A stretch of DNA of 64,000 bases, taken from Candidatus Aenigmatarchaeota archaeon (GTDB lineage: Archaea > Aenigmatarchaeota > Aenigmatarchaeia > CG10238-14). A program made the position numbers and the translations under genes. The notes beneath the pieces are model-generated. The model saw only the letters and a program-made list of their open reading frames with translations. It was not told the DNA's origin and searched no databases. Positions within the stretch are counted from its first letter, which is position 1; each line of letters starts with the position of its first letter. This document shows positions 42,333-58,959 of this stretch, piece after piece. The stretch covers positions 3,522 through 67,521 of the forward strand of contig JAWBZR010000002.1 of NCBI GenBank assembly GCA_044343545.1, given 5' to 3'.

Positions 42333-42448
<116 letters not shown>

Positions 42449-42833: not shown

Positions 42834-42948
42834 ATCCCCCCGGCCGGATTTGAACCAGCAACCCTTCGGTTTCTGACGAGCATACGCCGGTGACGAATGC
42901 TTTTAGCAAACGTCTACAGCCGAATGCTCTACCGTTGAGCTACGGGGG
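42834..42948 (-). tRNA. tRNA-Tyr (anticodon GUA) with an intron of about 43 nt at the canonical position
   Basis: Reverse complement: CCCCCCG TA GCTC AACGGTA GAGC A TTCGG CTGTAG[A CGTTTGCTAAAAGCATTCGTCACCGGCGTATGCTCGTCAGAA]A CCGAA GGGTT GCTGG TTCAAAT CCGGC CGGGGGG A. The C1:G72 pair is the archaeal Tyr identity element. Confidence 0.8.
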
Positions 42949-43000
42949 GTCATAATTACAATAATCAATTTAATTAAAATATTTTAACCATATAATTTTT

Positions 43001-50995: not shown

Positions 50996-51086
50996 AGCCC
51001 CGTCGTCTAGATGGCTTTGCCAGGATAACGGTCAAGGATAGCGGGCTTTGGACCCGTTGACAGCGGTTCGAATCCGCTCGGGGCTA
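50996..51086 (+). tRNA. tRNA-Gln (anticodon UUG) with an insertion (intron) of about 19 nt in the D-arm
   Basis: AGCCCCG TC GTCT AGATGGCTTTGCCAGGATAACGGTCAA GGAT A GCGGG CTTTGGA CCCGT TGAC AGCGG TTCGAAT CCGCT CGGGGCT A. The A1:U72 pair and 3' half match archaeal tRNA-Gln. The 5' half is 19 nt too long. Confidence 0.7.
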
Positions 51087-52759: not shown

Positions 52760-52930
52760 TCACCCTTTTTTATAATTATTTTCAATTTCCGCTATCTTTT
52801 CTTGCAAAAAAGCTATCCTATCTTGCCAATATTTGACCTGCCTCAAGTTTTTTGCTTTGAATAGTTGAGCCTTTGCATTAAACAATTCTTCTCTATAAAA
52901 CCTCAATCTAAGCAGGTCTCGTTTGTTCAT
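52760..52930 (-). CDS. Possible small coiled-coil protein (56 aa)
   Basis: MNKRDLLRLRFYREELFNAKAQLFKAKNLRQVKYWQDRIAFLQEKIAEIENNYKKG. No homology recognised. Confidence 0.2.
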   Translation of the reverse strand: MNKRDLLRLRFYREELFNAKAQLFKAKNLRQVKYWQDRIAFLQEKIAEIENNYKKG

Positions 52931-53032: not shown

Positions 53033-54607
53033 ATGATTACAGAGAGAGAGTTTGCCAAAATTTTTCTGAAAGAGTTTAGAGCAAGGAAGCCGAAAACAAA
53101 AGAAGAAGTGATCAAGCTTAAAAGAGAATTGGCGGCAAAGTTTGGCATAGAAGAACCGACAAATCCAGATATACTGAAGTATGCAAGCGATGCATTTATA
53201 GAAAAGTACAGATCTCTTTTTGAAATAAAACCGACGAGAACCATATCCGGCGTGGCTACTATTACGGTTGCTTGTAAGCCAGCTTATTGTGGCGGTAACT
53301 GCAGTTATCGTCCTCCTTTAAGCAAGTTTGTGCCCAAGAGCTATTCTGCAAATGAACCAGCTATACAGAGAGCTATAAGAAACAAGTTTGACCCTTATAG
53401 ACAGGTGAGAGATAGATTGAGCCAATATAAAATAATGGGTCATCCCACGGACAAGATAGAAATCATAGTTTTGGGCGGAACCTTTTTGGCAACAGAAAAG
53501 GAATATCAGCATAAATTTATTAAGGGAATTTTTGACGGATTAAACGGAAAGAGAGCTTCCACTTTGGAAGAAGCAAAAAGGATCAACGAAACAGCAAGAC
53601 ATAGATGTGTAGGTTTAACGATAGAGACAAGGCCAGACTATTGTTTCGAGGAGCATGTCGATGCTTTATTGGAGTATGGCTGCACGAGAATAGAGTTGGG
53701 AATGCAATCGATATATAATGACGTCTTGGATAGAGTTAATAGAGGTCATCATGTTGAAGAAACTATAAGAGCTATACAAATTGCAAAGGATTCTGCTTTT
53801 AAGATCATATCTCATGTGATGCCATTCTTGCCTGGCTCAAGTGTTGAGAGGGATATAGATATGTTTAGGGAAATTTTTAGAAGTGAAGATTTGCAAGTAG
53901 ACGAATTCAAGATATATCCTTGCGTTGTTGTTGAAGGAACAAAACTCTACGAGGAATGGAAGCAAGGAAAATATACTCCACCAACTTTGGAAGAAGCAGT
54001 CAAAGTTATTGTTGAAATGAAAAAAATGGCACCTCCTTGGGTGAGGTTCAGGAGAATTTTTAGAGATATTCCGGCAAACGAAATTGTTGCTGGTGTGAAG
54101 AAAAGTAACTTAAGAGAAATAGCGATAGAAAGGTTAAAGAAAGAGGGTTTGTGGTGTAGGTGCACCCGTTGTAGAGAGCCAGGGCATGCAAAGAAAATTT
54201 ACTGGAGAGAAGTAGATAAAAGTCATATAAAGCTTGTCAGGAGAGATTATAGAGCATCGGGCGGAGATGAAATATTTCTTTCGTTTGAAGATGTCAAGAA
54301 TGATGTGCTTGTAGCTTTACTACGGCTAAGAATACCATATAAGCCGCATAGAAGAGAAATAGATGATAAGACAGCGTTGATAAGAGAGATTCATACCTAT
54401 GGAAAAATGGTGCCTATAGATAAAGATGATTCGAATAGCTGGCAACATAAAGGTTTTGGCTCATTGTTGCTTGAAGAAGCAGAAAGAATTGCTAAGGAAG
54501 ATTTTGACAAGAAAAAAATGATAGCTATATCGGGAGTTGGAGTAAAGAGTTGGTTTATGAAGCATGGATATAAGTATGAAGGACCTTATATGAGCAAATT
54601 TATTTAA
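53033..54607 (+). CDS. elp3: Elp3 homolog (radical SAM + GNAT, tRNA U34 carboxymethylation)
   Basis: ...KPTRTISGVATITVACKPAYCGGNCSY..., radical SAM core, C-terminal GNAT (QHKGFGSLLLEEAERIA). 524 aa. Confidence 0.85.
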   Translation: MITEREFAKIFLKEFRARKPKTKEEVIKLKRELAAKFGIEEPTNPDILKYASDAFIEKYRSLFEIKPTRTISGVATITVACKPAYCGGNCSYRPPLSKFVPKSYSANEPAIQRAIRNKFDPYRQVRDRLSQYKIMGHPTDKIEIIVLGGTFLATEKEYQHKFIKGIFDGLNGKRASTLEEAKRINETARHRCVGLTIETRPDYCFEEHVDALLEYGCTRIELGMQSIYNDVLDRVNRGHHVEETIRAIQIAKDSAFKIISHVMPFLPGSSVERDIDMFREIFRSEDLQVDEFKIYPCVVVEGTKLYEEWKQGKYTPPTLEEAVKVIVEMKKMAPPWVRFRRIFRDIPANEIVAGVKKSNLREIAIERLKKEGLWCRCTRCREPGHAKKIYWREVDKSHIKLVRRDYRASGGDEIFLSFEDVKNDVLVALLRLRIPYKPHRREIDDKTALIREIHTYGKMVPIDKDDSNSWQHKGFGSLLLEEAERIAKEDFDKKKMIAISGVGVKSWFMKHGYKYEGPYMSKFI

Positions 54608-55400
54608 GATATGGGGGGTGGGGTATACGATGAGTTGATCGTGTGAGATATTCTAAATTATAAGTTTCATAGGCATATAACCAAAAATGAGTACCTTTTT
54701 TTGTTTGATTTAATAGCATATTCCTTGTTTTTCTAAGACGATCTAAAGGTATTCCATATTCCAAAACTGCCTCTCTCAATGCTTCTCTAGATACATAAGC
54801 TAACTTCTCAGGATCTTCTCCTCTGTCATTTATCACCTTTGCTACCCTTTCAGCCCTTTCTTTCGTTGCTGCATATGGATGCAACATAGTTATGTAGTAT
54901 ACTCCTAGGTGTGGAGCAGGTACGCGTAGACCATTTGAAACTATTACATCAAATCTTTCCTCAAAATCAATATCAATTACGTCTACCCTTCCTTCAAAAA
55001 CACAAAGTGGTACACGACCTAAATATGTTCCAGCATCATATAGACAAAAATCACCATTATATACATGAAATGAAGGGTTTCTTTCTAGCTTTCTTATTCT
55101 ATTAACACCTAAAATAACACCTTCATATCTATTTGTTCTTTCAAGGAAAGTTCCATTATTGCTAACAACGATTCTTTGAACCTCTCCAACACAACCACAA
55201 GCAACGACAATATCCAAATCATTTGGTTCATAATTTAAATTTTTAGACAAATAAAGTAAAAGAAATGATCCTACAATTCTCACTCTATCATATCCTAATT
55301 CATTTAATAAAAATTTAACCGCCTTTTCACCAACATCCTTTCTCATAAAATAGTGATTTAAAAAATAGTTTTTTAAAAATTTATGTTTTCGTTTTGCCAA
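54600..55400 (-). CDS. Nucleotidyltransferase-fold protein (GS...DxD), function unknown. Likely true start at Met19 (about 55346).
   Basis: IVGSFLLLYLSKNLNYEPNDLDIVV NTase motif. Arg-rich and locally GC-elevated unlike its neighbours. 266 aa. Confidence 0.45.
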   Translation of the reverse strand: MAKRKHKFLKNYFLNHYFMRKDVGEKAVKFLLNELGYDRVRIVGSFLLLYLSKNLNYEPNDLDIVVACGCVGEVQRIVVSNNGTFLERTNRYEGVILGVNRIRKLERNPSFHVYNGDFCLYDAGTYLGRVPLCVFEGRVDVIDIDFEERFDVIVSNGLRVPAPHLGVYYITMLHPYAATKERAERVAKVINDRGEDPEKLAYVSREALREAVLEYGIPLDRLRKTRNMLLNQTKKGTHFWLYAYETYNLEYLTRSTHRIPHPPYLK

Positions 55401-55410
55401 AATTTATTTT

Positions 55411-56832
55411 ATGAAATATGACAAAATTCTAAAAGAGGTTTTAAAAAAAATCACGCCTAAATCAAAAGAAGAAAAAAAAATCAAGTCACTGAGTAAAAAA
55501 ATACTTGAAACAGCAAATCATCTTTCATTTTTCTACGGAGCTAAGGCTATTTTAGCCGGTTCATTAACAAGAAATACATGGTTGCCAAATAAAAATGAAA
55601 TAGATGTTTTTATCCTCTTCCCGAAAAATTTGAGCATAAAACATTTAGAGGAAAATGGTTTGGAAGTTGGCAAAAAAATAGTAGAAGAATTAGGTGGCAA
55701 GTGGACAATAGAATATGCGCAACACCCTTACATAAGAGGAACAATAAATGGCATAAACATCGACATCGTTCCTTGTTACAAATTAGAAAAAGGAGAAAAA
55801 ATAATATCTGCTGTTGATAGAACGCAATTTCATGTAGAATACTTGGAAAATAAGATATCTAAAAAATTAAGTAGCGAGGTTAGACTGTTAAAACAATTTT
55901 TGAAAGCTAATGGCTTGTATGGCGCTGATGCAAAAACAAATGGCTTTTCCGGATATTTATGCGAGTTGTTGATAATTCATTACAAGAATTTTTTGAATTT
56001 TCTTGAAGCAGCAAAAAATTGGAGAGTAAAAGAAATAATAGACATAGAAAATCAATGGAAAAAAGAAGAGTACAATCATTTGAAGAAAAAGTTTAAGGAT
56101 GAAGTTTTGATAGTGATAGATCCTGTAGACAAGGAAAGAAACGTTGCTTCGGCGGTTAGCGCTTATAACTTTTTCAAACTGAAAAAATTAGCAAGAGAAT
56201 TTTTGGAAAATCCAAGTGAAAGTTTCTTTTTTGAAAAAGAAATTAAACCTCTTTCTAAAAAAGAATTTGATGAGGTTTTAAAAGAGAGAGGAACTGAAAT
56301 AATAGGTATATTTTTCGAGCCACCAAAGATAGTTCCAGATATATTATGGCCACAATTAAGAAAAGCAACCAAAAGATTAGAAAGCATAATTGAAGAGTAC
56401 GAGTTTTCTGTTTTGAAAAGCGATTGTTGGACTGATGAAAAAAAGATTGCAGTCATTTTATTAGAAATGCAAGTAAGCAATTTACCTAGAATTGATAAAA
56501 TAATTGGCCCATGGGTTTTTGATGAAAAAAACGCGAAAAATTTTGCTGAGAAACACAAAGCTGATGCAATAGCAGGACCATACATAGAAGATAATTGTTG
56601 GGTGGTTGAGGTTAAGAGAAAATGGACATCTGCTAAACTTAAATTAATAGATTCTATAAGTAAAGATAAGGAAATTCTCAAAGCAAAAGGAATACCAAAT
56701 TTTATTGCCGAGCAATTATCAAAAGATTTCAATGTAGTTTCAAACGATGAAATAAAAAATTATTTCAAAAACAAAGAGTTTGCAATATTCATGAGAAAAT
56801 ATTTTGAAAAGGAAAATCTTGCTTTATTTTAG
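55411..56832 (+). CDS. cca: CCA-adding enzyme (archaeal class I tRNA nucleotidyltransferase)
   Basis: GSLTRNTWLPNKNEIDVFILFP class-I NTase head. 473 aa. Confidence 0.7.
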   Translation: MKYDKILKEVLKKITPKSKEEKKIKSLSKKILETANHLSFFYGAKAILAGSLTRNTWLPNKNEIDVFILFPKNLSIKHLEENGLEVGKKIVEELGGKWTIEYAQHPYIRGTINGINIDIVPCYKLEKGEKIISAVDRTQFHVEYLENKISKKLSSEVRLLKQFLKANGLYGADAKTNGFSGYLCELLIIHYKNFLNFLEAAKNWRVKEIIDIENQWKKEEYNHLKKKFKDEVLIVIDPVDKERNVASAVSAYNFFKLKKLAREFLENPSESFFFEKEIKPLSKKEFDEVLKERGTEIIGIFFEPPKIVPDILWPQLRKATKRLESIIEEYEFSVLKSDCWTDEKKIAVILLEMQVSNLPRIDKIIGPWVFDEKNAKNFAEKHKADAIAGPYIEDNCWVVEVKRKWTSAKLKLIDSISKDKEILKAKGIPNFIAEQLSKDFNVVSNDEIKNYFKNKEFAIFMRKYFEKENLALF

Positions 56833-57568
56833 CTATCAGGTCTTGAATTTTTTGTAATATCTGGTAAAACAGTCCAGTTCTTCTAAATAAATGTTCATAC
56901 TTTCCTTCTTCAAAACCTAAACGGCTGCTTATTTCTTTATCTGTGGCCACAACAACTTTGATCAAATCCTCATAAGAAAAATCTATACTTTCGAAATAAA
57001 CATCATCGCATTTTCTTATAGTTTTCTTAACAACGTTGCAAGGAAAGCTAAAACTACATTTTTGGGATATTTTCCAACCTTTTTTCCCAACAAAACTATC
57101 TATTTTATCTTCAAATGGTTTATGACAAGAAAAATAATCTTCTCCTGTTATCTGATGTGTTGGCGTCAACGCATCTGAAAAATAATGAATCGCCATACCA
57201 ATACTGTAATCATCCATTTTTATCGTTTCATTGAATTTTTCAAGAGCAGGACAATAAAAATAATCTCCATCAAAGCATTCAGAGATATCAGCAAAATAGT
57301 GCAAACTTCCTGGAGCTTTTATGGTTGTGTCAATTTTTTTGCATTGCTTTGCATAATAACAGCTATGTTGTCTTTGGTCCTTAACTATTGTGTCCGGCGC
57401 GATGCAGCCTTCTAAAAATAATGTTTTATTTTTTATCACTTCTCTCAAAGCTTCGTTTCCACTATAAATTTGATTGCAAATCCAAACATGAGTTTCACGG
57501 CCCCACGCATTAACTATGGGAAGCATGAATGATAATAAAATCAAAAATTTAAGGTAATATTTCATCAT
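56789..57568 (-). CDS. Secreted Cys-rich protein, possibly a zinc-dependent phospholipase C / S1-P1 nuclease-like hydrolase
   Basis: Signal peptide, then a mature N-terminus AWGRETHVW resembling the W-x-x-x-H metal-binding start of the PLC/P1 nuclease fold. 259 aa. Confidence 0.35.
   Translation of the reverse strand: MMKYYLKFLILLSFMLPIVNAWGRETHVWICNQIYSGNEALREVIKNKTLFLEGCIAPDTIVKDQRQHSCYYAKQCKKIDTTIKAPGSLHYFADISECFDGDYFYCPALEKFNETIKMDDYSIGMAIHYFSDALTPTHQITGEDYFSCHKPFEDKIDSFVGKKGWKISQKCSFSFPCNVVKKTIRKCDDVYFESIDFSYEDLIKVVVATDKEISSRLGFEEGKYEHLFRRTGLFYQILQKIQDLIAKIKQDFPFQNIFS

Positions 57569-58686: not shown

Positions 58687-58709
<23 letters not shown>
58458..58709 (+). CDS. SWIM-type zinc-finger protein (the track ORF starts at 58392; start at Met 58458 preferred)
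   Basis: CDCEYFSLKLTECSHIYAV is a CxC...CxH SWIM motif. Confidence 0.4.

Positions 58710-58959
<250 letters not shown>

Follow-up and report, generated by a model that had tools for sequence, protein, structure and literature searches.

In a stretch of 64,000 nucleotides (nt) from Candidatus Aenigmatarchaeota archaeon (GenBank assembly GCA_044343545.1, contig JAWBZR010000002.1, positions 3,522 to 67,521 of the forward strand; hereafter the window), the gene located between the genes for the tRNA modification enzyme Elp3 and the CCA-adding enzyme (cca), hereafter gene X, was found to encode a member of a tiny orphan nucleotidyltransferase (NTase) family with a predicted MenT-like fold and with putative C-terminal active-site residues different from those of the MenT proteins. 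By sequence comparison, the slot occupied by X in this DPANN genome is a polymorphic locus between Elp3 and cca, in which at least three alternative, fast-evolving cassettes of low GC content at third codon positions (GC3) were found in closely related genomes. X is very probably a real gene with an NTase fold, and it is highly likely to be an accessory, exchangeable cassette. The favoured reading as a whole, in which X is a MenT-like NTase of an orphan family, carried on an accessory cassette and with an RNA 3′ end as the leading acceptor, is put forward tentatively, at somewhat less than even probability.

The orphan family of gene X and its predicted fold

The mechanical listing of open reading frames (ORFs) contained a TTG-to-stop frame of 266 codons on the minus strand (54600-55400), and the initial annotation had described a 266-amino-acid (aa) ORF with a minimal NTase signature. 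The signature was borne out (VGS-x15-DLDI, with invariant GS and DxD), as was the guessed fold, whereas the length was corrected to 248 aa, counted from the ATG at 55346. In L001, a contig 99.9% identical to the window and belonging to a Candidatus Aenigmatarchaeota metagenome-assembled genome (MAG), one extra T was found in the T-run upstream of X, which places the 18-codon extension out of frame. The NCBI annotation gives 248 aa for a 99%-identical protein as well as for another member of its cluster, and four of the six X homologues were found to start at the same aligned position in an alignment of seven sequences (X and the six homologues). Because of the frame-breaking indel, the NCBI calls and the homologue start positions, the ATG at 55346 is almost certainly the true start of X. 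The window and L001 differ by seven single-nucleotide polymorphisms (SNPs) over 13 kb, which are too few to interpret; two of them lie in X (54688 and 54910), both being A-to-C changes on the coding strand that replace His with Pro, and this pair could be sequencing or assembly errors.

The stretch VGS-x15-DLDI (residues 25-46 of the 248-aa protein) was the sole match to the pattern hG[GS]x9-16Dh[DE]h among the window frames of at least 100 aa. The pattern appeared in 0.7% of shuffles of the X protein, and the match taken alone is suggestive only. A HMMER search against 1.84 billion cluster representatives (50%-identity clusters) recovered six other clusters with E-values (E) of 2e-27 to 8e-6. 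Together with the cluster members the family was found to contain about nine sequences among 15 billion, all unnamed or annotated as hypothetical, and it is so far confined to Aenigmatarchaeota and to unassigned short metagenomic contigs with archaeal-type neighbours. The seven aligned sequences contained conserved G26, S27, D43, D45, V95, C115, F117, P145, L147, G148, H156, P157, T161, R164, S186, N209, F221 and Y224, and these 18 invariant residues are kept across proteins that are only 23-41% identical to the window protein. Such conservation points to a real gene under constraint, with the NTase signature as its most conserved feature.

No match to X was found in Pfam, NCBIfam, PHROG or PADLOC, and X and its six homologues returned only noise; three sub-threshold Pfam matches of family members (NTP_transf_5, MdcG and NTP_transf_2; E 0.08-0.14) were all located on the N-terminal NTase region. 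A word-indexed search of 5.8 billion proteins returned the same-species copy only, a search that is insensitive here, as the alignment query recovered three of the seven known members. A family-pattern scan of genome contigs gave no match. Nothing points to a virus or plasmid as the source of X, because no relatives were found in IMG/VR, among INPHARED phages or among PLSDB plasmids and the fold matches in BFVD were weak.

The distant homologues P0005, P0006 and P0007 were found on short metagenomic contigs next to PheRS-beta, LeuRS-like and AlaX-like genes. These neighbours are weak evidence of a functional linkage, because small genomes are rich in translation genes and the loci probably share ancestry. 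A conserved block, GGGGCAATAGGGGAGGATTCTG...AGCAGAGGACC, was found about 45-130 nt upstream of distant X homologues (L002 at about 1698-1860, L003 at about 1685-1850 and L013 at about 1656-1800). It overlaps the end of a 32-43-aa ORF (ending in LKGQ, LKGR or YLGQ), has no Rfam match and is absent from the window, and it may represent either an RNA element or a small protein partner.

The AlphaFold2 model of X, built on the seven sequences, was found to have a mean predicted local distance difference test (pLDDT) score of 81.2 and a predicted template modelling (pTM) score of 0.81, with uncertainty only at the loop 72-89 and the last ten residues. A single-sequence run gave a pLDDT of 38 and was unusable. 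The signature residues lie on E22-24/H27-33/E44-48 of the model (beta1-alpha2-beta2). Both the hG[GS]...[DE]h[DE]h signature and the alpha/beta NTase core of the Pol-beta superfamily were found in X. Residues 147-248 are basic (isoelectric point 9.5, net charge +5). The 13 best Foldseek matches in the PDB were all to MenT3/TglT or MenT1 (E 2.5e-5 to 2.8e-4). In the structure comparison the model scored highest with MenT1 (8an4_A; 14.2, 183 of 195 residues aligned), followed by MenT3/TglT (14.1, 192 residues), ANT(2'')-Ia (12.2, 148 residues), MenT4 (12.1, 210 residues) and LnuA (11.4, 132 residues). Uncharacterised NTase-like proteins scored 9-10.7, CCA-adding enzymes 5.9-6.6, CD-NTases about 6 and OAS1 5.7.

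With MenT1 (Rv0078A), MenT3/TglT (Rv1045) and MenT4 (Rv2826c) of M. tuberculosis and with AbiEii, X shares a bi-lobed structure with a basic helical lobe, as modelled, and motifs I and II of the form G[GS]-x15-DxD with a long spacer; a spacer of this length between the two motifs has been described as typical for AbiEii/DUF1814 (PMC3985639). The size of X is close to that of MenT1, and its patchy, strain-variable distribution is likewise MenT-like, whereas its host is archaeal (DPANN). Judged from the model, X has a MenT-like architecture, but it should not be classified under DUF1814. A toxin-antitoxin-type NTase had been the nearest of three options offered by the initial annotation, except that the relatives are of the MenT/AbiEii type and not the minimal NTase (MNT) of HEPN-MNT pairs.

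Alternative cassettes between Elp3 and cca

Orthologues of X (P0002, P0003 and P0004) were found at the same cca/Elp3 position in other Aenigmatarchaeota MAGs and contigs, and cca and Elp3 flank X in all four syntenic lineages. These orthologues are 36-43% identical to the window protein; Elp3, cca and ThrRS of the same loci are 73-83% identical. The X ORF was intact in every X locus.

When cca was used as bait in species-representative genomes, three further relatives without X in the slot were found (L015, L016 and L017). The slots of L015 and L016 contained an ORFan of 382-389 aa resembling family 2 glycosyltransferases (GT2), namely P0010 (389 aa; L015 3766-4935, minus strand) and P0011 (L016 3788-4936, minus strand), both annotated as hypothetical. 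The two proteins are 50% identical to each other and contain a GT-A-like N-terminus with a DDDEE motif, the sole match being a weak one to Glycos_transf_2 (E 0.025). The slot of L017 (MAG SKW179, JAOAJH010000002.1) contained a 212-aa ORFan, P0012 (1252-1890, minus strand), in which all four DUF1814/AbiEii-type motifs were recognised by eye (LLGGS, RPPSLDIDF, AALKVRRG and GKDIYDIL). P0012 had no sequence match in Pfam, PADLOC, NCBIfam or the PDB and no relative among the 5.8 billion proteins, and in an hhalign comparison with AbiEii only motif IV was aligned, not significantly. Like X, it is an ORFan with NTase-type motifs, low GC3 and the same slot position and orientation; unlike X, it contains, by eye, the DUF1814 motif III/IV pattern AALKVRRG...GKDIYDIL. 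Homology between X and P0012 was not significant (hhalign probability 0.8%), and from its motifs P0012 is a candidate for a second, unrelated solo MenT-like NTase at the same locus.

In the comparison of L004, which carries X, with L015, which carries the GT-like gene, the flanks were 99.2% and 98.5% identical over 3.8 and 6.5 kb. Homology was lost some 9 nt short of the Elp3 stop codon and returned at about codon 6 of cca, and the equivalent of the X-cca intergenic region falls within the non-homologous cassette. The Elp3 proteins of L010 (X), L016 (GT-like gene) and L017 (212-aa ORFan) are 94-95% identical. The X and GT-like cassettes were each present in two clades, each being about 50% identical between the clades. 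Because near-identical genomes carry an unrelated gene in the slot, X is regarded as accessory and not as a housekeeping partner of cca. The slot pattern suggests that diversifying or frequency-dependent selection acts on an accessory function related to conflict or niche.

The initial annotation had placed X at 38-40% GC on a 30% background and had taken this as a sign of foreign origin. The composition scan gave 33.5% GC for X (32.3% with the N-terminal extension), 34.0% for the window and a mean of 33.8% for 66 ORFs, and the highest 400-nt window inside X reached 36%. The local GC maximum was found in Elp3 (37.9%, GC3 0.33), which probably accounts for the earlier impression of a GC-rich patch. 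In the codon comparison the synonymous codon choice of X was mid-range for the window genes (leave-one-out log-likelihood z = +0.29). A recent foreign origin by codon usage was rejected within the window on this value, and with neither raised GC nor atypical codon usage the GC-based argument fell away.

An earlier description of the protein as Arg-rich rather than Lys-rich did hold, with 9.2% Arg and 4.8% Lys against means of 4.5% and 10.5% over the 66 ORFs, and its R/(R+K) was the second highest among them. The GC3 of X (0.169) was the lowest of the 66 (mean 0.297, standard deviation 0.046), and its GC1 was high. Low GC3 belongs to the slot and not to X alone: the slot genes of the window, L004, L010, L011, L015, L016 and L017 showed a GC3 of 0.08-0.20 against 0.21-0.46 in the flanking cca and Elp3, most clearly in L011 (X 0.20, flanks 0.39 and 0.46). 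An exchangeable element was thus correctly suspected, as the sister genomes and the low GC3 indicate, but not for the reason given, which was high GC.

Possible activities of the X protein

MenT toxins add nucleotides, mainly cytidine monophosphate (CMP), to the 3′-CCA ends of tRNAs, by which aminoacylation is blocked (PMC7450476, PMC10435456, PMC11162799). Four motifs and the residues essential for toxicity have been described for MenT/AbiEii (PMC3985639, PMC10435456), the latter including the motif III Lys (K173 in AbiEii, K189 in MenT3 and K137 in MenT1) and an Asp of the motif IV +DxxD (D192, D211 and D152, respectively) (PMC3985639, PMC10435456). Motif II contains an Arg in AbiEii (R63) and a phospho-acceptor two residues before the first Asp in MenT3 (S78) and MenT1 (T39), and published simulations of MenT1 contain an active-site Cys.

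Under the favoured reading, X would be a soluble enzyme of the DNA-polymerase-beta NTase superfamily with two lobes, an N-terminal alpha/beta core holding the metal- and nucleotide-binding G26-S27 and D43-x-D45 residues, followed by a C-terminal basic helical lobe. A Mg2+-bound nucleoside triphosphate would be held by D43 and D45, possibly joined by E69 or by the invariant C115, and a nucleoside monophosphate would be transferred from it to a hydroxyl of the acceptor. Going by the fold, the basic helical lobe would bind the acceptor, for which an RNA 3′ end, for instance that of the tRNA acceptor stem, is the leading candidate. Catalytic activity as an NTase is fairly probable; an RNA or tRNA 3′ end as the acceptor, by analogy with MenT, is possible but doubtful.

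Several observations weigh against this reading. The model was built on only seven sequences, and the equivalences of its active site to that of MenT were drawn from residue spacing and not from a residue-level superposition. The AbiEii/MenT models (PF08843, PADLOC and NCBIfam) gave no match at E ≤ 1 to X or to its six homologues, hhalign against a thin profile of three plasmid AbiEii proteins gave a probability of 0.4%, and a sequence search of the PDB returned only chance matches to Ral-A for the single protein and none for the family profile. No invariant Lys and no invariant +DxxD were found in the X family; roughly at the MenT motif III/IV position, by residue spacing, the family contains its own LG-YYITRLHP-AxT-xxR block (residues 145-164). 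Beyond D43 and D45 no acidic residue is invariant in the alignment, and no conserved third carboxylate could be made out. At three conserved positions (R154M, D228N and P29L) the window copy differs from the consensus of its family. No antitoxin ORF was found upstream of X, and the 64 bp to the cca start leave no room for one; the ORF list and a Pfam scan gave no HEPN, AbiEi, effector or other partner gene within about 5 kb on either side, where the initial annotation had proposed to look for a HEPN or effector gene. The small-molecule NTases ANT(2'')-Ia and LnuA are structurally almost as close to X as MenT is.

Of the candidates for the third carboxylate position, E69 requires a one-residue shift of the window sequence to be Glu in six of the seven sequences (P0007 being the exception), and C115 is invariant and located on beta5 of the model. 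X lacks both the Arg of motif II and the phospho-acceptor Ser/Thr of AbiEii/MenT; the window protein contains Y39-E40-P41-N42 before D43, and these preceding residues vary across the family. An antitoxin gene (AbiEi/COG5340, COG4861 or MenA1-like) immediately upstream of AbiEii/MenT genes is usual but not universal. Each of three control plasmid AbiEii genes was preceded by an AbiEi gene, in contrast to X.

The absence of the MenT-specific Lys and +DxxD, together with the lack of an antitoxin that a non-toxic enzyme would not need, would also fit a small-molecule nucleotidylyltransferase of the ANT(2'')-Ia (AadB)/Lnu type that modifies an antibiotic-like compound or a metabolite, with the GT-like cassette achieving the same end through glycosylation. 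Detoxification genes that vary between strains are common, and the alternative cassette is GT2-like, albeit at an E-value that makes the match weak. However, the MenT structures score higher and are aligned over 183-210 residues, helical lobe included, against 132-148 residues for ANT(2'')-Ia and LnuA, whose helical lobe is smaller than that of X. No Pfam match of X to the aminoglycoside or lincosamide NTase families was found at E ≤ 1, no sequence-family match links X to these enzymes and nothing indicates an antibiotic substrate for X. This explanation is considered unlikely.

A clearly less probable explanation takes X as a LicD/FKRP-like phosphotransferase or another enzyme decorating surface glycans, the slot being a surface-variation locus whose alleles add different decorations. 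The GT2-like alternative allele, the retention of alternative alleles in two clades and the fast evolution of all cassettes would agree with it, the last two being typical of surface or phage-receptor loci. Against it, X has no Pfam LicD match, no signal peptide or transmembrane segment was seen in X by eye and no other glycan-synthesis genes were found nearby.

It is just as improbable that X is an NTase-fold protein in decay or without catalytic activity, that is, a pseudo-enzyme or a relic cassette drifting under weak selection. This would account for the very fast divergence of X, the lowest GC3 in the window, the three departures of the window copy from the consensus, the non-synonymous nature of both SNPs against L001 and the lack of a conserved third carboxylate, Lys or +DxxD. 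The intact ORF in every locus, the confident model and the 18 invariant residues, which include all four GS/DxD positions at 23-41% identity, argue against it.

A housekeeping tRNA 3′-end enzyme working with the CCA-adding enzyme, either in repair or as a split CC/A-adding pair, is very improbable. X and cca share the divergent intergenic region, the synteny is kept in four lineages, distant homologues adjoin the PheRS-beta, LeuRS and AlaX-like genes, and the fold family acts on tRNA 3′ ends. X would belong to the same superfamily as the class I CCA-adding enzyme, with the same GS...[DE]xD chemistry, and is encoded 64 bp away on the other strand. However, this explanation is largely refuted by the genomes whose 98.5-99.2% identical flanks enclose an unrelated gene in place of X. 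X also evolves about three times faster than its neighbours, its family is exceedingly rare, translation genes are frequent chance neighbours in small DPANN genomes, and the adjacent cca already encodes the full three-domain class I enzyme; the combination of NTP_transf_2 head, tRNA_NucTransf2 neck and C-terminal body/tail domains was not found in X. The earlier idea of a second tRNA 3′-end NTase remains compatible with the MenT-like fold, but a housekeeping role tied to cca is contradicted by the strain-level replacement, and the tRNA-themed neighbourhood of X is probably incidental and not a functional linkage.

Least probable of all are two further roles, that of a signalling enzyme resembling CD-NTase/OAS and that of the MNT antitoxin in a HEPN-MNT pair, which the generic NTase fold and the GS...DxD signature would allow: X has no SMODS, CBASS or PADLOC match (it is cca that matches SMODS and the CBASS cyclase model), neither a CD-NTase or OAS fold supported by a model match nor an effector, HEPN or partner ORF was found with it within 5 kb, and its 248 aa with a helical lobe are too large for a minimal NTase, which is roughly 100-140 aa in size.

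The favoured MenT-like reading can be carried further, although the extension is judged quite improbable: X and the 212-aa ORFan, as two unrelated solo MenT-like NTases and alleles of one slot, each read divergently from cca, would extend or mark tRNA 3′ ends, and cca with a 3′ exonuclease would serve as the antidote or reset. If true, it would represent an archaeal, antitoxin-less 'damage and repair' switch at tRNA ends that balancing selection maintains within a reduced DPANN genome.

Neighbouring features and meaning of the slot

Table 1. Positions of gene X, its parts and its flanking features in the window
Feature	Coordinates	Strand	Basis and remarks
Gene X coding sequence (orphan NTase)	54600..55346	-	248 aa, ATG start, TAA stop; ORF list, L001 indel, NCBI 248-aa proteins, homologue alignment, six homologous clusters
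N-terminal extension of the mechanical TTG ORF	55347..55400	-	18 codons; spurious, non-coding, intergenic; T-run indel between window and L001
NTase signature V25-G26-S27-x15-D43-L-D45 (motifs I and II)	55212..55274	-	Pattern search; invariance in seven members; beta1/alpha2 and beta2 of the model
Family-specific block P145-x-L147-G148-x-Y-Y-I-T-[R/M]-L-H156-P157-Y-A-x-T161-x-x-R164	54855..54914	-	Residues 145-164; invariant alignment columns; model helices 147-154 and 162-174
C-terminal all-helical lobe (predicted)	54633..54908	-	Residues 147-238; model
Divergent intergenic region between the ATG codons of X and cca	55347..55410	.	64 bp, AT-rich
Flanking core gene, archaeal class I CCA-adding enzyme (cca)	55411..56832	+	TIGR03671 E 7e-143; Pfam NTP_transf_2, tRNA_NucTransf2, CAA_C
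Flanking core gene, Elp3 (radical SAM/GNAT tRNA U34 modification enzyme)	53033..54607	+	TIGR01211 E 7e-196
Predicted exchangeable cassette (last ~9 nt of Elp3, X, intergenic region, first ~5 cca codons)	54599..55425	.	Extrapolated from sister-genome breakpoints (L004/L015; L016/L017 likewise)

The positions are collected in Table 1. X and Elp3 share 8 nt at their 3′ ends, and X lies head-to-head with cca, as had been noted earlier. Both promoters are presumably located within the intergenic region; a scan for sigma-70 promoters and terminators is uninformative for an archaeon. The proposed block of tRNA and translation-factor modification genes was confirmed for Elp3, the NcsA/TtuA-like PP-loop protein and Dph2, and the wider block was also found to contain an S-adenosylmethionine (SAM)-dependent methyltransferase, a Zn-dependent phospholipase-C-like protein, ThrRS and a TGS-domain GTPase.

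A Lys/Arg-rich ORF of 56 aa, probably helical by eye, was found between the NcsA-like gene and Elp3 (52763-52930, minus strand). It is 76-100% identical over all related loci irrespective of the cassette, and it was rejected as a partner of X, because its sequence is the same (100% identity) in L004, which carries X, and in L015, which lacks it. The phospholipase-C-like gene (56789-57568, minus strand; PF00882, E 1e-8) shares 44 nt with the 3′ end of cca and encodes a hydrophobic N-terminus resembling a signal peptide; its orthologue in L006 is broken into two ORFs (114 and 137 aa) and may be a pseudogene or an assembly error. A 115-nt tRNA (42835-42949, minus strand), found by Rfam and missed by ARAGORN, probably contains an intron and lies near the 5S rRNA (42334-42448). 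A borderline Rfam tRNA (51013-51086, plus strand; 29.4 bits against a 29-bit threshold) was found just upstream of the methyltransferase gene, and a similar tRNA-like sequence with a 30-nt insert was present in L002 (1509-1595, minus strand). A small zinc-ribbon ORF (58687-58959, plus strand) contained ten consecutive Lys codons (KKKKKKKKKK) followed by a hydrophobic tail.

The locus also carries a caution, in that a GC anomaly perceived by eye was wrong in direction and the tRNA-themed surroundings probably do not reflect the function of X. If the enzyme is active, it would represent a new sequence family of archaeal MenT-like NTases with different C-terminal active-site residues and no antitoxin, and would broaden the known range of RNA 3′-end-tagging enzymes. 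Whatever X does, the locus is a clean case of two core genes in a streamlined DPANN genome enclosing a strain-variable slot, in which at least three unrelated ORFan cassettes alternate and two cassette types recur in two clades. It offers a concrete handle on accessory-gene turnover, and on possible conflict systems, in organisms in which almost nothing similar has been characterised.

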